A DNA stretch of 64,000 nt from Escherichia coli (GTDB lineage Bacteria > Pseudomonadota > Gammaproteobacteria > Enterobacterales > Enterobacteriaceae). Under the pieces are notes generated by a model. The model saw only the letters and a program-made list of their open reading frames with translations. It was not told the origin of the DNA and ran no database searches. Where the stretch lies: the NCBI RefSeq assembly GCF_024298765.1, contig NZ_CP101210.1. One strand, 5' to 3'. How positions within the stretch are numbered: position 1 is the stretch's first letter; each line of letters starts with the position of its first letter. Of the stretch, positions 27,172 through 56,349 are shown piece after piece. The translations under genes were made by a program, and so were the position numbers.

Positions 27172-27687
27172 GTGGGGAACATCCAGAGTTTTGTTCACAA
27201 AGTGGTGGAGCACTGGCCAAATCTGTTGGCATTTCACTTCACGCTCTATTCGGCAGAAGGAATCTATGGTCAACAGATTCAGACATTTTGTAGTTCCTTT
27301 CACCGACGGGTACACGAACGTATTACGGAGCATAATCACACGGTCAGCCCATCAGCGCCGGTGGTATTACGCTGGTTGCGGGAACAACATGAAGGAGCAC
27401 AGATACGATGTCTGTTGCTGCTCAGCCAGACGAGTATTTGCCATCCGCGAGTCGGCGTCATGGCTGATGAAGAATGTGCGCAACTGGTGGATTTACTGCA
27501 ACAGACCTGGTCGGTGATAAGTGCTGGCGGACAATGCCGGGTGGAAAGATGTTTTCGGGTTGCCCGGGGTGATACATCCGGCCAGTATATTGCGTTAAAA
27601 ACAGTTGCATTGTCTCTGGGGTTACCGGTTGTGACCGGTATTACCCATCGCCCGGTACAGCGCTGTACATTGATTACAGCTCAGTGA
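27172..27687 (+). CDS. Conserved island-associated hypothetical protein, copy 2 (paralog of 53..601)
   Basis: 171 aa, ~85 percent identical to copy 1 by eye; upstream overlapping ORF 27074..27517 suggests possible frameshift at the 5' end. Confidence 0.4.
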   Translation: MGNIQSFVHKVVEHWPNLLAFHFTLYSAEGIYGQQIQTFCSSFHRRVHERITEHNHTVSPSAPVVLRWLREQHEGAQIRCLLLLSQTSICHPRVGVMADEECAQLVDLLQQTWSVISAGGQCRVERCFRVARGDTSGQYIALKTVALSLGLPVVTGITHRPVQRCTLITAQ

Positions 27688-27704
27688 ACAGCGCTGTTGT
27701 GCAG

Positions 27705-28216
27705 TCAACGAGGTTTTCTGTCTTTTCGTCGGTCATTCAGCATCATTAAACGGGTCTCTGCCTCTTTCTGTTCCTGTGGTGTCACTTCCCCGCACGGCTG
27801 ACCGTTCAGGTTGTAACGGGCGCCACCTGCTATTAACGCACGGTAATAGCACGGAGACTGCACATAAGACGCCACTGCTGCATGTAATGTACCAGCGCCA
27901 AACGCCAGTTCTCGGATGGCGATATCCTGTATCAGGTCGTCAGGTATCCCCACTTTAAGTGGTTTTGTTTTTTTCCCGGTTGAATGACTCAGGCCAGAGT
28001 TCCACAAGACGAATAATGCGCTTACGGTTTTTGCTCTGGCGTTTTGTCATGTCGCCACGGTGTTTTATCAGCAGGTTTCTGTTTATCGTTCAACTGTGGT
28101 ATCTGGTCACCGGCCTTCATTTTGTATGCTGTGTCCGTTTTATTCTGCAGCGGCGTTGCCGGTGATTTACTGAAAATACCCTGCGGTTTACGGTTAATGG
28201 TCAGAGTTACCATCAA
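27705..28216 (-). pseudogene. ProQ/FinO-domain gene, copy 2, frameshifted
   Basis: FinO-domain part in ORF 27705..28007 (KPLKVGIPDDLIQDIAIRELAFGAG...), N-terminal part (MMVTLTINRKPQGIFSKSPATPLQ...) in a different frame at 28022..28216. Confidence 0.45.
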
Positions 28217-28808
28217 TTTTGTTACCTCGCGCTGTCAATGGAAGTAGTACCTCATCCGATATCTGAAAATGTTTTCCGGTGGATGTTACAGCGAATTTCA
28301 TGTAAGACATGTTGTTGTCGGTATTGTTCAGTACTGTGCGTTGTGAGCGTATTCGTTATCAGACAGAGGGGCAGGGAACAAACGTCAGAGGTTAAGGATA
28401 TCCGGGAACAAATGGCGTAAACGGACATCTCAGTGCCTGAGAAACAGTACAGGTCAGGCCATCATGGCCTGCAAACAGAGCCCTGGCGACCCCGTGGCCG
28501 AAAACGAAACAATAACCCGCGCGCAGTGCGAGGAATCCGGATGTGAAGCAATCAGCAGGTAATATTAATGGCAGGACCAGCAGGTTCTTTAAACAAACGA
28601 ACATGCTGTAATTGATATTTTGCTTATTGTATTTTCTTTTTAGTTATTAAATTAATTTATTTACGAAAAATTTTCTGCAGATACAGGATGGGAATTCAGG
28701 GTGTCATCACGCCTTATGATGACACCCTTCCCCTGGTTGTGGAAAACCGAAGGATATATCAGGTTCAGCAACAAAATCAGTGAGCTGAAAGATACCAGTC
28801 CCCCAGCT

Positions 28809-35290: not shown

Positions 35291-36550
35291 ATGCTTAAAA
35301 GACGTGATGCTTTTTTAAAGAAAAGCGCGCTGGCAGTGAGTGTGGCCCTGCTGCTCTCATCTCAGGCTTTGGCTCATAAAACAATTACTGATTCAACGGC
35401 GGGTATTATCTGGATTGATAATGGCACTCAGTCACTTGAAAGTGCAAGTGTGATTGACAGAAATGGAAATGCTAACGATGGTGGTAGTGTTACTGGAAAA
35501 AACTTTGCTGTTGGTTCCGATGCAATAATTTGGGATGCGGATAAATCCATGGCAACAGGAAATAAGACAGCTGTTTTTAATGCAGACAACAGTGTCGCTC
35601 TGGGGTATGGCTCTCAGGTGAATGGAGAAAGCAATGTACTTTCTGTAGGGGCCGGTCCTTCAGGATATGGATTTTCAGTTGATGGTGCACCGGAAACCCG
35701 CCGGATTATAAATGTTTCAGATGGTGTTAAGGATAGTGATGCGGCCACAAAAGGACAGATGGACAACGCCATTGCAGGTGCTGTACGGGTGTCGGGGGAT
35801 GCCCTGCGCGGTGAGATAGGAGCTGTCTACCGTGATGCTGTTTCTCATACTGACAGTCAGGTCACAGCAGTACGTGATGAACTGAAGGCAGAGGGAGACA
35901 GTCTGCGCGGTGAGATAGGCGGTGTATACAGAGATGCCCGTGCTCATACTGACAGTCAGGTTACAGCAGTACGTGATGAACTCAGCAGGGATATTATTGC
36001 AGGCACATCGGCAGCGGTGGCGTATACGGATGCATCTTCTCTTGCTCTTCAGGATGAAATAAAAGAAAAAGCGGATGAAACAGTTCAGGTTTCCCGGGCT
36101 TATACAGATAAAAGTGTACGGGATGCCCGTAAAGAAGCGAAAAGCCAGGCAGAACATCTCAGCGATGTGCTTGTGAAGAACAGGGCGCAGACGGATGCAG
36201 CAATAGCCTCAAATACAGCAGCGATAAGGAATAACAGTCATCGTCTGGATTTGACGGAAGCCTGGCAGAAGATGGCGACAGAGAGAATGAATAATATGCA
36301 GGAGCAGATTAAAGAGAACCGGAAGGAGTTAAGGGAGAGTGCAGCCCAGAGCGCGGCACTGGCAGGTCTTTTCCAGCCATACAGTGTTGGAAAATTTAAC
36401 GCGACAGCAGCCGTTGGTGGTTACCGTGATGAGCAGGCCATTGCGGTGGGCGTGGGCTACCGTTTCACAGAGAATGTGGCAGGAAAAGTTGCAGTTGCTG
36501 CAGGTGGGTCATCCGCATCGTGGAATGCTGGTGTGAATTTTGAGTTCTGA
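35291..36550 (+). CDS. Trimeric autotransporter adhesin (YadA-like, type Vc)
   Basis: Signal peptide [28 protein letters not shown], head repeats ([23 protein letters not shown]), coiled-coil stalk, C-terminal YadA anchor ...[47 protein letters not shown]. Confidence 0.8.
35804..35982 (+). repeat. In-frame tandem duplication (2 x 99 bp, 33-aa period) inside the adhesin stalk
   Basis: [27 protein letters not shown] / [27 protein letters not shown]; nucleotide units nearly identical. Confidence 0.7.
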
Positions 36551-49492: not shown

Positions 49493-51463
49493 ATGTATAT
49501 GAATGTAATCAGAACTGTCATTTGTACATTAATTATAGTCCCGGTGGGACTACAGGCAGCGACCAGTCATTCTTCTATGGCTAAAGATACAATCACCATT
49601 GTCGCGACAGGAAATCAGAACACGGTATTTGAAACGCCGTCGATGGTCAGTGTCGTCACGAATGACACACCGTGGAGTCAGAATGCGGTTACATCGGCCG
49701 GCATGCTGAAAGGTGTTGCCGGTCTCAGCCAGACTGGTGCAGGACGGACCAATGGGCAGACCTTTAATCTACGCGGCTATGACAAAAGCGGGGTACTTGT
49801 TCTTGTTGACGGCGTCCGCCAACTCAGTGACATGGCAAAAAGCAGTGGCACTTATCTGGATCCGGCTCTTGTCAAACGTATCGAAGTTGTCCGCGGGCCA
49901 AACTCCAGTCTGTACGGCAGTGGCGGGCTGGGAGGTGTAGTGGACTTCAGAACTGCCGATGCAGCAGATTTCCTTCCCCCCGGAGAGACAAACGGTTTAA
50001 GTCTGTGGGGAAATATTGCCAGTGGTGACCACAGCACAGGCTCGGGGCTCACCTGGTTCGGTAAAACCGGAAAAACAGATGCGCTCCTTTCTGTCATTAT
50101 GCGTAAAAGAGGTAATATCTATCAAAGTGATGGTGAGCGCGCACCTAACAAGGAAAAACCTGCAGCCCTGTTTGCGAAAGGCTCTGTCGGTATAACAGAC
50201 AGTAACAAAGCAGGTGCCAGCTTGCGTCTCTACCGGAATAACACCACTGAACCGGGCAATCCCACTCAGACACATGGTGACAGCGGCCTGCGTGACAGAA
50301 AAACAGTACAAAATGACGTACAGTTCTGGTACCAGTACGCTCCTGTGGATAACAGCCTCATCAATGTAAAGTCAACGTTATATCTCAGTGATATCACTAT
50401 CAAGACAAACGGTCACAACAAAACGGCAGAATGGAGAAACAACAGAACCTCCGGTGTTAATGTTGTCAACAGGAGTCATACTCTGATTTTTCCGGGAGCC
50501 CATCAGTTAAGTTATGGCGCTGAATATTACCGTCAGCAGCAGAAGCCAGAAGGCTCTGCCACACTATATCCGGAAGGAAATATTGACTTTACATCGTTGT
50601 ATTTCCAGGATGAAATGACAATGAAAAGCTACCCTGTTAACATTATCGTCGGTTCCCGCTATGACCGGTACAAGAGCTTCAATCCCCGTGCCGGAGAACT
50701 GAAAGCCGAACGCCTGTCCCCAAGGGCGGCGATTTCAGTCTCACCGACAGACTGGCTGATGATGTACGGCTCCATATCCTCTGCATTCCGAGCGCCCACA
50801 ATGGCAGAAATGTACAGGGATGATGTACATTTTTACCGCAAGGGTAAACCCAATTACTGGGTTCCTAACCTTAATCTGAAACCAGAAAATAACATCACCC
50901 GTGAGATTGGCGCAGGTATTCAACTGGATGGCCTGCTTACAGACAATGACCGGCTGCAGTTAAAAGGCGGATATTTCGGAACGGATGCCAGAAACTATAT
51001 TGCCACACGCGTGGATATGAAACGGATGCGTTCTTATTCTTATAATGTATCCCGGGCCCGTATCTGGGGATGGGATATGCAGGGAAATTACCAGTCTGAT
51101 TATGTTGACTGGGTGCTTTCTTATAACCGGACGGAAAGTATGGATGCCAGCAGCAGGGAATGGCTGGGCTCCGGCAATCCTGACACACTTATCAGTGACA
51201 TCAGCATACCTGTTGGTCATAGAGGCGTTTATGCCGGATGGCGTGCTGAACTTTCAGCATCAGCCACGCATGTGAAAAAAGGCGACTCCTATCAGGCTGG
51301 CTATGCCATACATTCCTTTTCACTGTCTTATAAGCCTGTAAGTGTTAAAGGCTTTGAGGCGTCAGTAACTCTGGATAATGCCTTCAACAAGCTTGCCATG
51401 AATGGCAAAGGTGTGCCGCTTTCAGGCCGAACTGTCAGTCTTTATACCCGTTATCAGTGGTAA
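49493..51463 (+). CDS. TonB-dependent outer-membrane receptor, heme-receptor-like (ChuA/ShuA/ZnuD relatives)
   Basis: 656 aa, signal peptide, plug motifs (VLVLVDGVRQ, RIEVVRGPNSSLYGSGGLGGVV), barrel ending ...YTRYQW; ~50 percent identical to ChuA by eye in conserved blocks. Confidence 0.85.
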   Translation: MYMNVIRTVICTLIIVPVGLQAATSHSSMAKDTITIVATGNQNTVFETPSMVSVVTNDTPWSQNAVTSAGMLKGVAGLSQTGAGRTNGQTFNLRGYDKSGVLVLVDGVRQLSDMAKSSGTYLDPALVKRIEVVRGPNSSLYGSGGLGGVVDFRTADAADFLPPGETNGLSLWGNIASGDHSTGSGLTWFGKTGKTDALLSVIMRKRGNIYQSDGERAPNKEKPAALFAKGSVGITDSNKAGASLRLYRNNTTEPGNPTQTHGDSGLRDRKTVQNDVQFWYQYAPVDNSLINVKSTLYLSDITIKTNGHNKTAEWRNNRTSGVNVVNRSHTLIFPGAHQLSYGAEYYRQQQKPEGSATLYPEGNIDFTSLYFQDEMTMKSYPVNIIVGSRYDRYKSFNPRAGELKAERLSPRAAISVSPTDWLMMYGSISSAFRAPTMAEMYRDDVHFYRKGKPNYWVPNLNLKPENNITREIGAGIQLDGLLTDNDRLQLKGGYFGTDARNYIATRVDMKRMRSYSYNVSRARIWGWDMQGNYQSDYVDWVLSYNRTESMDASSREWLGSGNPDTLISDISIPVGHRGVYAGWRAELSASATHVKKGDSYQAGYAIHSFSLSYKPVSVKGFEASVTLDNAFNKLAMNGKGVPLSGRTVSLYTRYQW

Positions 51464-51481
51464 CCTCTCAGGAAATAAATC

Positions 51482-52273
51482 ATGATGAAAAATACAGGCT
51501 ATATCTTAGCTCTTTGTCTGACAGCATCGGGGCATGTCCTGGCCCATGATGTCTGGATTACCGGCAAACAGGCAGAGAACAACGTTATCGCAGAGATTGG
51601 TTATGGTCATAATTTCCCCTCAAAGGGCACGATTCCTGACAGAAGGGATTTCTTTGAAACTCCCCGGCTTTATAACGGGAAAGAGACAATAACGCTGAAG
51701 CCAACATCCACGGATTATGTCTATAAAATTGAGTCTGCAGGCAACGGTAATAGCTACGTTCTGTCAACGAAAATGAAACCGGGATACTGGTCGAGAACCT
51801 CGTCAGGATGGAAGCCTGTCAGCCGGGAGGGCAGAAATGATGTGGCATACTGTGAGTTTGTGACTAAATATGCAAAATCTTTTATTCCTGGTGAACAGCA
51901 GATGCCAGCACAACTCTATCAGTATCCAATAGGGGATGAGCTTGAAATCATTCCGTTATCCGATATCAGTCGTTTCGGTGAAGATGTGAAGCTGAAAGTT
52001 CTGTATAAAACTTCCCCGCTTGCCGGAGCCACTCTGGAGCTTGACTCTGTCAGTTATCTGAAATCATCCCGCCATACTCATGCGGCAGAGCATAAACATT
52101 CGGCTCATAAAGCAGAACTTACCTTTGTAAGTAATGAGGACGGTATCATCACTGTACCCTCCCTTCATGTCGGGCAATGGCTAGCTAAAGTCAAAAATAA
52201 GAAAGTATTTCAGGACAAAAACCTGTGTGATGAAACTGTCGATGTGGCAACCTTAAGCTTCTCCCGAAATTAA
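51482..52273 (+). CDS. Secreted protein with His-rich segment, co-transcribed with the receptor (family unassigned, possibly DUF4198-like)
   Basis: Signal peptide MMKNTGYILALCLTASGHVLA; His cluster SSRHTHAAEHKHSAHK; 18-bp spacing after the receptor stop. Confidence 0.45.
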   Translation: MMKNTGYILALCLTASGHVLAHDVWITGKQAENNVIAEIGYGHNFPSKGTIPDRRDFFETPRLYNGKETITLKPTSTDYVYKIESAGNGNSYVLSTKMKPGYWSRTSSGWKPVSREGRNDVAYCEFVTKYAKSFIPGEQQMPAQLYQYPIGDELEIIPLSDISRFGEDVKLKVLYKTSPLAGATLELDSVSYLKSSRHTHAAEHKHSAHKAELTFVSNEDGIITVPSLHVGQWLAKVKNKKVFQDKNLCDETVDVATLSFSRN

Positions 52274-52283
52274 TAATACTATT

Positions 52284-52307
52284 CCTGCCCTGTAATTTAC
52301 GGGCAGG
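52284..52307 (+). terminator. Possible terminator hairpin after the receptor operon
   Basis: CCTGCCC-TGTAATTTAC-GGGCAGG. Confidence 0.3.
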
Positions 52308-52573
52308 GTATATCAACCGGAAATAGCCTACTGACATCCATGTATAAAGCCACATAATTATTTTGTTGATGTATCTTACCTAATACGTAAGCGTAAAGCC
52401 AATGCCGTCTGTAACTCCTGATCCTTGCAGACTAAATGTAAGCGCTCCTTCTGTGCCGTCTTGTGGTGGTTGTCCTGTCTGGCAACAATCGCGTCCATCT
52501 ATTGATGGACACGAATGATGAATTCTCAGACAACAAAAGATATGTAAGCGGCTCGTCAGAACCGTATTGATAT

Positions 52574-54145
52574 TTACTGAGAGCTCAGATCAACTTTCCA
52601 GGGCAACAGATCGCGTACCCGGTTTGCCGGCCAGTCCTGGATATGTTCAATGACGTAACGCAGCCACTTTTCTGGCTCCACATTGTTCAGACGGCATGTG
52701 CCGATCAGCGAGTACAACACCGCCGCATGTTCACCACCGCTGTCGGAACCCGCGAACATCCAGTTTTTCCGGCCTACGGCCACTCCCCGTAAGGCGTTCT
52801 CTGCGATGTTGTTGTCGATTTCCACCCAGCCATTACTGCAGTACACGTTCAGTGCATCCCACTGTTTCAGCAGGTATGCGAACGCTTTTGCCGTATCTGA
52901 GTGACGCGACAGTGTTTTCATCTGTTGCTGTATCCAGTCATACAGTGACTGCATCAGTGGCGCGGCTCTGGCTTTTCTTGCCGCCAGACGCTGTTCTGCT
53001 GAACAGCCCCGGACCTCTGCCTCGATGGCATACAGTTCACCGATACGCTGCAGGGCTTCCGTGGTGATGTCGGTGGGCGCTCTTGCATGCACATCGTGGA
53101 TTTTTCTCCGGGCATGAGCCATACACGCGGCTTCCGTTATTCTGCCGGATTCGTATAACACCCGGTAACCACCGTAAGCATCGGCCTGAAGCACACCGCT
53201 GTAACCGGCCAGGTGATTTTGTGGATGGATACCTTTCCGGTCCGGACTGTACGCGAACCAGACCGCCGGGGGCATCTGTGAACCGGCGTTGCGATCATCA
53301 CGGACGTAGACCCACAGCCGGGCTGTCCGGGTTTTACCGCTGCCCGGCTCCTGGACCGGGACGGGGATATCATCGGCATGGACTTTACCGGGCATCAGCA
53401 CATACTGGCGCAGGACGTCATACAGCGGCTCCAGCAGTTCAGCAACAGCACCTGTCCAGCGCCCCAGTGTGGCACGGCTCAGCTCCACGCCCTGGCGACG
53501 GTATATTTCTGACTGGCGGTATAACGGCAGATGGTCTGCATATTTCCCGGTGACAACATGGGCCAGAAGCCCCGCTCCGGCATAACTGCGTGCAATGGGT
53601 TTTGAAGGCACCGGTGCCTGCACGATATGGTCGCACCGGCAACAGGCCTGTTTCGGACGTTGTGTTTCGATAACCTTAAAGGCACTGCTGATAAGCTCCA
53701 GTTGCTCTGACACATCACATCCCAGTGGACTGAGTTCACCACCACAGGCCGGACAGCATTCCTCTTCCGGCCGGATGACCCGGGGTTCACGGGGAAGTGA
53801 AGCCGGTAACGGTTTACGGGCTGAAGACTGGCGCAGGGGGGATGGCAGTACCGGGTCATATTGCTCACCCAGCGTTTCTGCCATTTCTTCCTGAAGTGCG
53901 CTGATTCGCTCCTGTGCTTCCTGTATCTGCCGTTCGGTTTTTGCGCGAAGTTTTTCTGAGCTTTTACCGAACTGCATACGCTGCAGTTTCGCAACCAGCG
54001 CCTTCAGCCGGTTGATTTCGGAAGCATAAGCCGCCACCCGCTGTGAGAGCAGGCGGTTGTATTCGGCCATCTGGCGGATGGTGTCCTGTTGCGTCTGCAA
54101 CAGTGCCTGCAGGCGGGCATTCTCATGAGCAAGTGAGGTGTCCAT
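52574..54145 (-). CDS. IS66-family transposase TnpC
   Basis: 523 aa with N-terminal coiled coil, CCPACGGEL zinc motif and DDE-type core. Confidence 0.85.
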
Positions 54146-54164
54146 ATCCTCACTTTACAACGGG

Positions 54165-54512
54165 TTATATACGGATTCCAGCGCGTTCCGTTCGTTTCGG
54201 GTGCTTCCAGTCGATGCCCTCGAGAAGCATGGATAACTGAGCCGGAGTAAGGTGCACCTTGCCGTCACGGGTGACTGGCCAGACGAAGCGGCCCCGCTCC
54301 AGGCGTTTGGTGAAGAGGCACAGTCCGTCACTGTCAGCCCACAACACTTTTATCTGGTCACCCCGGCGTCCGCGGAAGATGAACAGGTGTCCGGAGAACG
54401 GGTCATCCTTCAGGACGTTCTGAACTTTTGAGGCCAGGCCGTTAAAGCCATTTCGCATATCGGTGATACCTGCAACCAGCCAGATACGCGAACCTGCAGG
54501 GAGAGATATCAT
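54165..54512 (-). CDS. IS66-family TnpB (orf2)
   Basis: 115 aa, conserved IS66 orf2 (MISLPAGSRIWLVAGITDMRNGFNGLA...). Confidence 0.85.
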   Translation of the reverse strand: MISLPAGSRIWLVAGITDMRNGFNGLASKVQNVLKDDPFSGHLFIFRGRRGDQIKVLWADSDGLCLFTKRLERGRFVWPVTRDGKVHLTPAQLSMLLEGIDWKHPKRTERAGIRI

Positions 54513-55189
54513 CAGTGGCTGCTCCCTTTTATTTCGCGGATAAGTGTCTGTAATAACGCCGGCGTCAGTTTACCTTTAAGCCTGAGAGTTCCGGCCGGCA
54601 GAACCAGCTCACAACACAGACTGTCGGACGGTGTATTTATCTGCTCTGGTTCCTGTGCGGGGGCCGGGATTTTATTATCCGGCTCCGGCGTTAACGTCAC
54701 GGGAAGCAGTGCCGGCATATTTTTTCCGGAAGGCAGCAGGCCACCTTTCCGGTATTGATGGCGCCAGTTGAAGAGCAGGTTATCGTTGATTCCGTTTTCC
54801 CGGGCGATCTGCGCCACACAGGCTCCGGGCTGCAGTGACTGCTCCACTAAGGCGATTTTAAACTCATAAGGGAAGTTGGGCCGCCGGGGACGTTTTTTTA
54901 CCACGGGGGCTTCGGATATAACGGTGCTTTCAGGACGTACGACTGGTACCGTGGAAAATTGTCCGTAAAGGCAGGCATCAAGTTCCTGCTCCGACATGCC
55001 TGCGGGCAAAGGCCACGAAAGGCCAGCTCTCCGAAAGCGCACGAACATACTACAAACTGTTGATTTTGATACACCCAGGCGACGCCCGGCCACAACCCGG
55101 GGTAAATGTTCTTCAAAGTGAAGACGTAAAGCTTCAGTGATCCAGGTCCGGTGTTTCATACGATAGTGTCCATTAAAAATGATGGACAT
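54512..55189 (-). CDS. IS66-family TnpA-like (orf1) with long N-terminal HTH extension
   Basis: 225 aa; C-terminal half identical to 19866..20516. Confidence 0.6.
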   Translation of the reverse strand: MSIIFNGHYRMKHRTWITEALRLHFEEHLPRVVAGRRLGVSKSTVCSMFVRFRRAGLSWPLPAGMSEQELDACLYGQFSTVPVVRPESTVISEAPVVKKRPRRPNFPYEFKIALVEQSLQPGACVAQIARENGINDNLLFNWRHQYRKGGLLPSGKNMPALLPVTLTPEPDNKIPAPAQEPEQINTPSDSLCCELVLPAGTLRLKGKLTPALLQTLIREIKGSSH

Positions 55190-55394
55190 TATTTTTGTAG
55201 AGCCGGAGGAAACAGACCAGACGGTTTAAATGAGCCGGTTACAAAGATATCACCGGCTTTCGCTCTTATTTTCCAGATGTATTGCGACTAATATTCGAAG
55301 AGCAATTATCTGTTCGGGCTATCGCACTGGAGCAGTTAGGCCTCAGTCATTCCACCGTTCATAATATCTTTCAACGGTTTAATGCCTCTGGCAT

Positions 55395-56349
55395 GTAAGC
55401 GTAAACCGACCGTTGTATTGACGCTTATTTATAGGGGAGAACTACGTTCCATGGCAGGAGTTCGTCAGTAAGCGTACAGCCTGAACCGTCTGGTCAGAAT
55501 CTGACGCATTAGACAAAGTGGTGTCCACAAAATAAGTAGTGGGAACCAAAGTGTCAGATATGCAGAAAAATGTGACTCCCGGCAGGCGAAAAGGCTGCCC
55601 TAATTATCCTCCCGAATTTAAACAGCTGCTCGTTGCTGCCTCCTGTGAACCCGGGATATCCATCTCAAAACTTGCTCTTGAAAATGGCATTAACGCCAAT
55701 CTGTTGTTCAAATGGCGACAACAATGGCGCGAGGGAAAGCTGCTATTACCTTCTTCAGAGAGCCCCCAGCTACTTCCTGTGACTCTCGATGCAGCTGCCG
55801 AACAGCCAGAATCGCTCGCAGAGGACCCGGAAACCCTCAGTATCAGCTGTGAGGTAACGTTCCGGCACGGGACGCTCCGCTTCAATGGCAATGTCAGCGA
55901 AAAACTCCTGACTCTGCTGATACAGGAACTGAAACGATGATCCCGTTACCTTCCGGGACCAAAATTTGGCTGGTTGCCGGTATCACCGATATGAGAAATG
56001 GCTTCAACGGCCTGGCTGCGAAAGTACAGACGGCGCTGAAAGACGATCCCATATCCGGCCATGTTTTCATTTTCCGGGGCCGCAGCGGCAGTCAGGTTAA
56101 ACTGCTGTGGTCCACCGGTGACGGGCTGTGCCTCCTGACCAAGCGGCTGGAGCGTGGGCGCTTCGCCTGGCCGTCAGCCCGTGATGGCAAAGTGTTCCTT
56201 ACGCAGGCGCAGCTGGCGATGCTGCTGGAAGGTATCGACTGGCGACAGCCTAAGCGGCTGCTGACCTCCCTGACCATGCTGTAAATCTCTTTATCCTGGT
56301 TGTCACAGAATAAGCCCGGTAAAATACGGGCTTATGAACGACATCTCTT
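55395..56349 (+). mobile_element. Second IS66-family element type, partial: left end plus tnpA (55539..55940) and tnpB (55937..56284); tnpC absent
   Basis: Begins GTAAGCGTAAACCGACCGTTGTATTGACGCTTATTTATAGG...; orf1/orf2 homologous to 58350..58775 / 58003..58353. Confidence 0.6.

Follow-up and report, generated by a model that had tools for sequence, protein, structure and literature searches.

In a 64,000-nucleotide stretch of Escherichia coli DNA (contig NZ_CP101210.1 of assembly GCF_024298765.1; the whole stretch is called the window), an IS66-family insertion sequence (IS) at 52544-55242 lies inside what a preliminary description had called an older transposase relic. The locus raises the questions of whether this IS entered by a clean insertion, what the relic is, and why IS66-type ends recur at this spot. 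The interval was found to hold an intact IS66-family element of 2,699 bp, with its genes on the minus strand, inserted cleanly with an 8-bp target-site duplication (TSD) into the left end of a second IS66-family element, here called relic B. High confidence attaches jointly to what is regarded as shown: the element and its boundaries, the duplication and the empty site, what relic B and the neighboring ends A, C and D are, and the recurrent independent insertions.

Clean insertion of an ISCro1-like element into an IS66-family left end

The inserted element, its duplication and the two parts of relic B were placed as follows:

52438-52543, plus strand: left part of relic B, with inverted repeat (IR) GTAAGCGCTCC..., palindrome, start codons at 52515 and 52518, and first tnpA codons
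52536-52543, no strand: left copy of the TSD AAAGATAT, equal to nt 99-106 of relic B
52544-55242, minus strand: inserted ISCro1-like IS ("IS66 copy 2" of the preliminary description), defined by full-length 1-2699 matches elsewhere and by its Prokaryotic Genome Annotation Pipeline (PGAP) name
52544-52569, plus strand: IR of the tnpC side, GTAAGCGGCTCGTCAGAACCGTATTG, matching the other end at 19/26 positions
52574-54145, minus strand: tnpC, 523-aa DDE transposase (Pfam and NCBIfam)
54165-54512, minus strand: tnpB, 115-aa IS66 Orf2-type accessory protein (Pfam and NCBIfam)
54512-55189, minus strand: tnpA, encoding a long-type accessory protein of 225 aa that has an additional helix-turn-helix (HTH) region at its N-terminus (NCBIfam and Pfam)
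55167-55188, no strand: TGTCCAT-N8-ATGGACA, the subterminal palindrome found in the inserted IS at 55-76 nt in from the tnpA-side tip
55217-55242, minus strand: IR of the tnpA side, GTAACCGGCTCATTTAAACCGTCTGG read on the minus strand, 19/26 against the other end
55243-55250, no strand: right copy of the TSD AAAGATAT
55251-55394, plus strand: right part of relic B, tnpA codons to about residue 57 (joined-flank open reading frame [ORF] and NCBIfam)

The three genes lay on one strand in the order tnpA, tnpB, tnpC, with the accessory genes upstream of tnpC and the tnpB start overlapping the tnpA stop. TnpC matched Pfam PF03050 DDE_Tnp_IS66 (8e-104) as well as zf-IS66, LZ_Tnp_IS66 and DDE_Tnp_IS66_C, and scored 476 bits against NCBIfam NF033517 transpos_IS66 (cutoff 180). 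TnpB matched Pfam TnpB_IS66 (3e-40) and NCBIfam NF033819 IS66_TnpB (129 bits, cutoff 50). TnpA matched NCBIfam NF038385 IS66_access_TnpA (296 bits, cutoff 150), with Pfam HTH_Tnp_1 at residues 102-159. Both IS tips, starting GTAA(G/C)CG, aligned in register with seven other IS66 tips of the window. A DDE TnpC, accessory genes, imperfect IRs and an 8-bp duplication thus all place 52544-55242 in the IS66 family.

Copies 98.8-99% identical to this interval carried the PGAP label "IS66-like element ISCro1 family transposase," and by sequence similarity the element is ISCro1-like, the name ISCro1 being taken from PGAP labels only. The IS is common and already catalogued. Many E. coli chromosomes and plasmids had matches spanning exactly 1 to 2699, with identities of 99-100% and unrelated surroundings, and 80% or more of its length was present on about 1,400 plasmids, the genera being Escherichia, Shigella, Salmonella and Klebsiella, among others.

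The two copies of AAAGATAT directly abutted the IS tips GTAAGCGGCTCG... (52544) and ...GAGCCGGTTAC (55242). A query of 494 bp representing the empty site was built by joining the flanks after deletion of the IS and one AAAGATAT. The empty site was present at 80% coverage or more in at least 119 of 5,426 complete E. coli genomes, with 100% identity and 100% coverage in 30 of the 30 matches listed. In the empty-site locus of strain 26561 (L001), window positions 50842-52543 corresponded to 7563-9264 and window positions 55243-56349 to 9257-10363, the two flanks overlapping by exactly 8 bp. A single-copy empty site with this exact overlap identifies the insertion as clean, as the preliminary description had claimed.

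That description had itself named a coincidental 8-mer match with mis-set IS boundaries as the way in which its claim could fail. The 8-mer was somewhat over-represented in the window (six copies against 2.2 expected), yet a match falling exactly at both element ends had a chance of 4^-8. The boundaries were also fixed independently of the repeat, because the 1-2699 matches recurred exactly in unrelated contexts, and six of eight other IS copies examined carried perfect 8-bp duplications of their own at the same two ends. No empty-site sequence was seen that joined elsewhere than at the 8-mer, and no IS copy whose ends were off by over one or two bases. Together with the empty site and the exact flank overlap, these observations led to rejection of a coincidental 8-mer at something other than a simple insertion, which is scarcely conceivable here.

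In the sequence of events reconstructed here, the ISCro1-like IS, with all three genes intact, transposed into nt 99-106 of an already truncated relic B, and staggered cleavage and repair of the target produced the family-typical duplication. An 8-bp staggered target cut in DDE transposition by TnpC is established for the IS66 family, and the sequence signature at this site matches ordinary TnpC-driven transposition of this kind. The insertion split a dead 58-codon tnpA remnant of B, with no evident functional consequence. Both the insertion event and the element are known, ordinary biology, and the importance of the insertion itself is limited to annotation.

A second locus in the window had been described as "IS66 copy 1" (18495-20601) and taken for another copy of the same IS. 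This did not hold, as only 18511-20183 matched copy 2, at 94%. The portion of copy 2 found in common by BLAST was 53157-54829, at the same identity, plus the last 24 nt of the tip. Copy 1 had the tnpA-side tip of the inserted IS and diverged right after GGTTAC; it carried a 216-aa tnpA of its own (19866-20516), its tnpC was truncated to 334 aa beside IS3-family DNA, and its subterminal sequence, which ends at 20601, was a different one. Ungapped comparison with this truncated mosaic was for that reason uninformative for boundaries.

As a separate observation, an ISCro1 copy near terW in a tellurite-resistance island (L010, L011) had no duplication, with TTTTAGAC on one side and TGAAAATC on the other. 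In L010 this copy lay 9 bp outside an ISEc8 left tip.

The preliminary description had also noted that joining the flanks gives a short HTH-type fragment, which was reconstructed here as MMNSQTTKDITGFRSYFPDVLRLIFEEQLSVRAIALEQLGLSHSTVHNIFQRFNASGM*, a 58-aa ORF. Its further claim of an older transposase relic stood in part: the fragment comes from an HTH protein of IS origin, but the protein is the N-terminus (57 residues) of an accessory TnpA and not a transposase proper. Residues 14-58 of the ORF were 44% identical to residues 14-57 of the TnpA of the inserted element. The ORF matched positions 1-45 of NCBIfam NF038385 IS66_access_TnpA (E=4e-13), being a fragment and hence below the full-length cutoff; an intact 225-aa TnpA encoded on a plasmid (L003) shared 86% identity with it at the N-terminus. 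The element at L003 had a full-length 225-aa tnpA, a tnpB interrupted by ISEc11, and a partial tnpC. Joined B DNA (250 nt) aligned from nt 1 with the left end of the L003 element at 90%, and at 77-82% with many copies annotated as tnpA, including those of O157:H7 (77% for the O157 copies).

Relic B consisted of an IR, the palindrome GTCCATC-N4-GATGGAC (nt 56-73; 52493-52510) and an ATG at nt 78 or 81, the layout of the tnpA-side ends of other IS66-family elements in the window. This order of IR and 5' tnpA was colinear with the related element at L003. The IR in register, the palindrome, the ATG and the TnpA homology together identify B as the left end of a second IS66-family element, assigned by sequence to the long-TnpA subgroup. 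The relic and the GTAAGCG motif at 52438 are therefore one object, the motif being B's own terminal repeat. Relic B ended at 55394, where it was cut by the tip of a further stub (C, below), which supplies the G of the ORF's last ATG and its TAA stop.

An origin of the relic in debris of an unrelated HTH transposase (for example of the IS21, IS630 or IS3 family), with the GTAAGCG motifs as separate objects, was also considered. Pfam gave only weak generic HTH matches for the 58-aa ORF, and the N-terminal region of the full-length L003 TnpA had a faint IS21 match. Against this stood the IS66_access_TnpA match, the 86% protein identity to an intact IS66 TnpA, and the 90% colinear DNA running from the tip at 52438 through the ORF; the unrelated origin was rejected and is very improbable. 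The pseudogene that PGAP annotates as "helix-turn-helix domain-containing protein" in well over 100 E. coli genomes is thus the 5' end of an IS66-family tnpA.

A B-type IS66 element was also seen near tRNA-Phe in E. coli O157:H7 F7349 (L004, 2709-3501), starting about 170 nt from a truncated ISEc8 tnpC, a further case of IS66-family elements abutting.

Recurrent insertion near the tnpA-side tip

A left-junction search matched the window's exact left junction in no genome. The same search revealed the same island with ISCro1 at other positions in other E. coli strains. Only insertions of one orientation and no more than about 650 bp away were detectable by the junction query. Each island copy listed here was 2,699 bp long with a perfect TSD:

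Avian pathogenic E. coli (APEC) IMT5155: TSD AGATATCA, B nt 101-108
XDL: TSD TTATTTTC, B nt 122-129
Strain 64.1: TSD CACTGGAG, B nt 181-188
TUM9754: TSD GAAAAATG, nt 98-105 of the adjacent ISEc8
Strain 23CRST013: TSD GAAAAATG, the same ISEc8 site as TUM9754 with the IS in opposite orientation

These insertions lay 2, 23, 82, and about 322 bp from the window site. The IMT5155 site, being 2 bp off the window's, represents a separate event. By junction match only, DE17 and VTB96815v had the same one-piece 303-bp match as IMT5155, and BEN2908 the same 324-bp match as XDL. Including the window's, at least six independent events fell within about 330 bp, against a crude uniform expectation of about 0.09 per 650 bp. 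Repeated targeting of this spot had been argued on weak grounds in the preliminary description; the five or more further independent insertions, distinguished by different TSDs or orientation, now bear it out. The position of ISCro1 in the stack (99-106, 101-108, 122-129, 181-188, or ISEc8 98-105) offers a cheap lineage marker for extraintestinal pathogenic E. coli (ExPEC) and APEC.

To survey the wider distribution, the exact tnpA-side tip was searched for in species-representative genomes and in contigs from metagenomes. Among the 130 distinct flanks obtained, 27 belonged to a single draft Escherichia genome in which ISCro1 had expanded; seven distinct sites were added from complete genomes. 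Two loci (L069 and L094) were excluded, as they matched the IS66 library via the ISEc11 (IS110-family) insertion in the L003 reference. Twelve of the roughly 137 sites lay inside IS66-family elements, and in six of the 12, spread over five element types, the distance to the tnpA-side tip was 64-121 nt:

Relic B: nt 99-106 from the tnpA-side tip
ISEc8: nt 98-105 from the tip
ISEc8: nt 84-91 from the tip
"Copy 1" type: nt 103-110 from the tip
E type (see below): nt 114-121 from the tip
ISCro1-like derivative: nt 64-71 from the tip

Another four sites were outside an IS66 tip, at a distance of 9-190 nt. In three element types, four events in all started 98-103 nt from the tip, with TSD centers 35-40 nt past the palindrome center. 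The first approximately 65-190 nt inside the IS66 tnpA-side tip are a recurrent ISCro1 landing zone. As a hotspot this is a modest lead for which no previous report was found; a full-text literature search, which lacked the 2001 IS679 paper, returned no report of IS66-into-IS66 targeting.

One plasmid (L012, NZ_LR883051.1; IS at 301-2999) carried ISCro1 with the TSD TTTTGAAC in an apparent IS66 derivative, in which a left end up to the palindrome was fused to a tnpC fragment and tnpA and tnpB were missing.

Several IS66 subgroups had a GTCCAT..ATGGAC palindrome shortly before the tnpA start codon, its center 64.5-67 nt from the tnpA-side tip. It was found in the window at 52493-52510, 55167-55188 and 20521-20549, and also in L003 and L004, and was imperfect in ISEc8 and the E type. 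This palindrome may be an operator or protein-binding site.

The recurrence may be explained in two ways. A protein bound at the conserved subterminal region, around the palindrome about 65 nt from the tip, would capture target DNA; this element-encoded protein, possibly TnpA, would recognize the palindrome, and insertions would fall mostly about 35-40 nt past it. That such protein-directed capture accounts for the recurrence, beyond tolerance of junk-DNA insertions alone, is a tentative proposal. It is provisionally favored on the distribution of sites, yet its weight is comparable to that of passive clustering, in which neutral insertions would persist in dead IS DNA, helped by a mild A+T or bendability preference near the tnpA start and with no element-specific recognition. 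Passive clustering is possible to much the same degree, somewhat short of probable. The TSDs were 61% A+T against a background of 52%, their consensus was weakly palindromic, and other ISCro1 copies lay beside other IS families, in prophages, and on plasmids, all of which agree with a passive process. By the matrix built from 116 non-IS66 TSDs the zone scored slightly above the element average, but the consensus was weak (GnWTAWnC, 1.35 bits) and did not single the zone out, so sequence preference as the sole cause was rejected. The hot-zone sites were not top-scoring (percentiles 0.60-0.98), and about 2-4% of element positions elsewhere scored equal or better. The at least six independent events in the island and the shared starts at 98-103 nt likewise speak against passive clustering.

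That half of the 12 internal events fall within 2.3% of element length also speaks against passive clustering; the binomial probability was 1e-7 (3e-5 for the two unbiased scans only, with four of nine events), figures that are weakened, without being erased, by the zone of 64-121 having been set after the data were seen. Further points weigh against directed insertion. Tolerance of insertions in dead IS DNA certainly adds to the enrichment, about 4% of the metagenome-sample sites lay inside IS66 elements, and the island recurrences are ascertainment-limited, leaving their fine-scale shape and orientation bias hardly readable.

ISCro1, and perhaps the IS66 family generally, might accordingly be pictured as homing to the tnpA-proximal subterminal region of resident IS66 elements, distant relatives included, a notion as tentative as protein-directed capture itself. 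Such homing, if true, would knock out the resident tnpA, would build the end-stub stacks of E. coli islands, and would constitute a family-specific mode of IS-into-IS targeting, a description of which was not found for IS66. Experimental confirmation of the recurrence would inform target choice by the poorly understood IS66 transposition machinery and help to explain nested IS66 debris stacks in pathogenicity islands and virulence plasmids.

The stack of neighboring IS66-type ends

The site lay in pathogenicity-island debris, with a gene for a TonB-dependent receptor and a DUF4198 gene upstream of it. The stacked IS66-type ends followed the order A stub, B, C stub, D (ISEc8-like), with a complete element, E, beyond:

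52387-52437, plus strand: stub A, nt 1-51 of an ISEc43-like IS66-family element counted from its left (tnpA-side) tip, by tip identity
55395-55467, plus strand: stub C, a 73-nt remnant from the tnpC side of an E-related IS66-family element, truncated by the tip of D
55468-56349, plus strand: element D, the left 882 nt of an ISEc8-like element, with tnpA at 55539-55940 and tnpB at 55937-56284
56350-58860, genes on the minus strand: element E, a complete 2,511-bp IS66-family element
56380-57972, 58003-58353 and 58350-58775, all minus strand: tnpC, tnpB and tnpA of E, respectively

Two extra GTAAGCG-initiated ends had been placed at 52385-52470 by the preliminary description. Both motifs (52387 and 52438) are true IS66 ends, and the proposed alignment with IS66 termini was confirmed, nine window tips (these two and seven others) aligning in register as GTAAGCG-N11-CCGTMT; the second motif, however, belongs to the relic itself. 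GTAAGCG occurred 14 times in the window against six expected, with seven of the 14 copies within 52387-58860. Stub A was 49/51 to 51/51 (96-100%) identical to the left tips of tnpA/tnpB/tnpC elements in L005 (ISEc43 family by PGAP) and L006, had its IR in register with other IS66 tips, stopped exactly at the tip of B, and was found in 703 genomes. By sequence, an ISEc43-like left end is the source of the first GTAAGCG motif, which is a genuine stub 51 bp long.

Stub C was 88% identical to 56349-56422, the end of element E, and its minus-strand translation ended in ...ELLPWNVVLPYK*, a TnpC C-terminus. Element D was cut by E in the window and intact (2,441 bp) in the empty-site genomes. Element E was flanked by CATCTCTT on one side and CTTTATCC on the other; as it lacks a target duplication, a later rearrangement is likely. 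Three more IS66-family elements are thus represented at this locus by end stubs, the short GTAAGCG-initiated sequences.

The A-B-C-D stack is ancestral, since it is contained in the 494-bp empty-site query. At the older junctions A/B, B/C, C/D and D/E no duplications were found, so only the ISCro1 insertion was demonstrably clean, and deletion or recombination is a possible origin for the others that tells against targeted insertion. Successive nesting was tried as an explanation and could not be shown. There is about an even chance that the stack was built by IS-mediated adjacent deletions or by recombination between IS66 copies. The other half could be recovered at none of the older junctions, IS3-family DNA instead of the remainder of C followed D's right end in L001, and the flanks of E differed. 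A metagenome locus (L073) nevertheless fits repeated entry of tips into IS66 ends, its ISEc8 tip abutting a stub of the same end type as C that is 60 nt and not 73 nt long. An insertion followed by later deletion would also give a picture identical to that of a deletion-built stack, and an origin by deletion or recombination covers the older junctions only and not the ISCro1 insertion.

In L073 (contig ERZ786681.173, flank nt 36-95), an unrelated locus, the ISEc8 left tip lay against the E-type tnpC-side stub. The difference in stub length from the window's C/D junction indicates that the arrangement arose independently. The E-type tnpC-side end (56350-56382 and 55395-55427) was a hairpin-like palindrome, GTAAGCGTCAA-N12-TTGACGCTTA, and a 34-nt version of this palindrome occurred alone beside a tnpC fragment in L077 (flank nt 131-164).

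Elsewhere in the window, direct repeats of about 1.4 kb (85-1459 and 27174-28603), 87-94% identical and 27 kb apart, covered two small genes (53-601, plus strand; 620-1099, minus strand) and may be duplicated island modules. Two 80-nt copies at 35804-35982, 88% identical with a spacing of 99 nt, are probably a repeat inside a large surface-protein gene.

Comparison with known systems

Canonical IS66-family elements (IS66, IS679 and ISEc8) have IRs starting with GTAAGCG, a tnpA/tnpB overlap in ATGA, a TnpC with zf-IS66, DDE_Tnp_IS66 and C-terminal domains, and an 8-bp target duplication. All of these were shared by the inserted element. By contrast, neither the TnpA of ISEc8 (133 aa) nor that of the E-type element (141 aa) has the extra N-terminal HTH region of its 225-aa TnpA.

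ISCro1 was named from Citrobacter rodentium, where it has expanded to 24 copies (PMC3072379). The inserted IS resembled it in the three-gene layout (long tnpA, tnpB and DDE tnpC), the 8-bp duplication, and the wide spread on enterobacterial chromosomes and plasmids, and differed in length, at 2,699 bp against the 2,824 bp given for "ISCro1" in EC958 (PMC8764528). The exact 25-nt right end was found in no C. rodentium record in the species-representative genome scan, so the window copy probably represents a variant from E. coli and not the type copy. In the draft genome of Escherichia sp. MOD1-EC7003 (L017-L043), at least 27 contig-end junctions had the exact IS tip, which indicates a recent ISCro1 expansion like that in C. 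rodentium.

End-directed target choice is known in other families: IS30 shows "IR-targeting," and IS911 of the IS3 family inserts beside IR-like sequences. In the distribution of their sites the ISCro1 insertions resemble these, falling repeatedly in or beside the ends of resident related elements. Unlike in both of these, the zone favored by ISCro1 is not the IR but a subterminal region around the tnpA start, about 65-190 nt in from the tnpA-side tip, and some of the elements hit are only distant relatives of the incoming IS.

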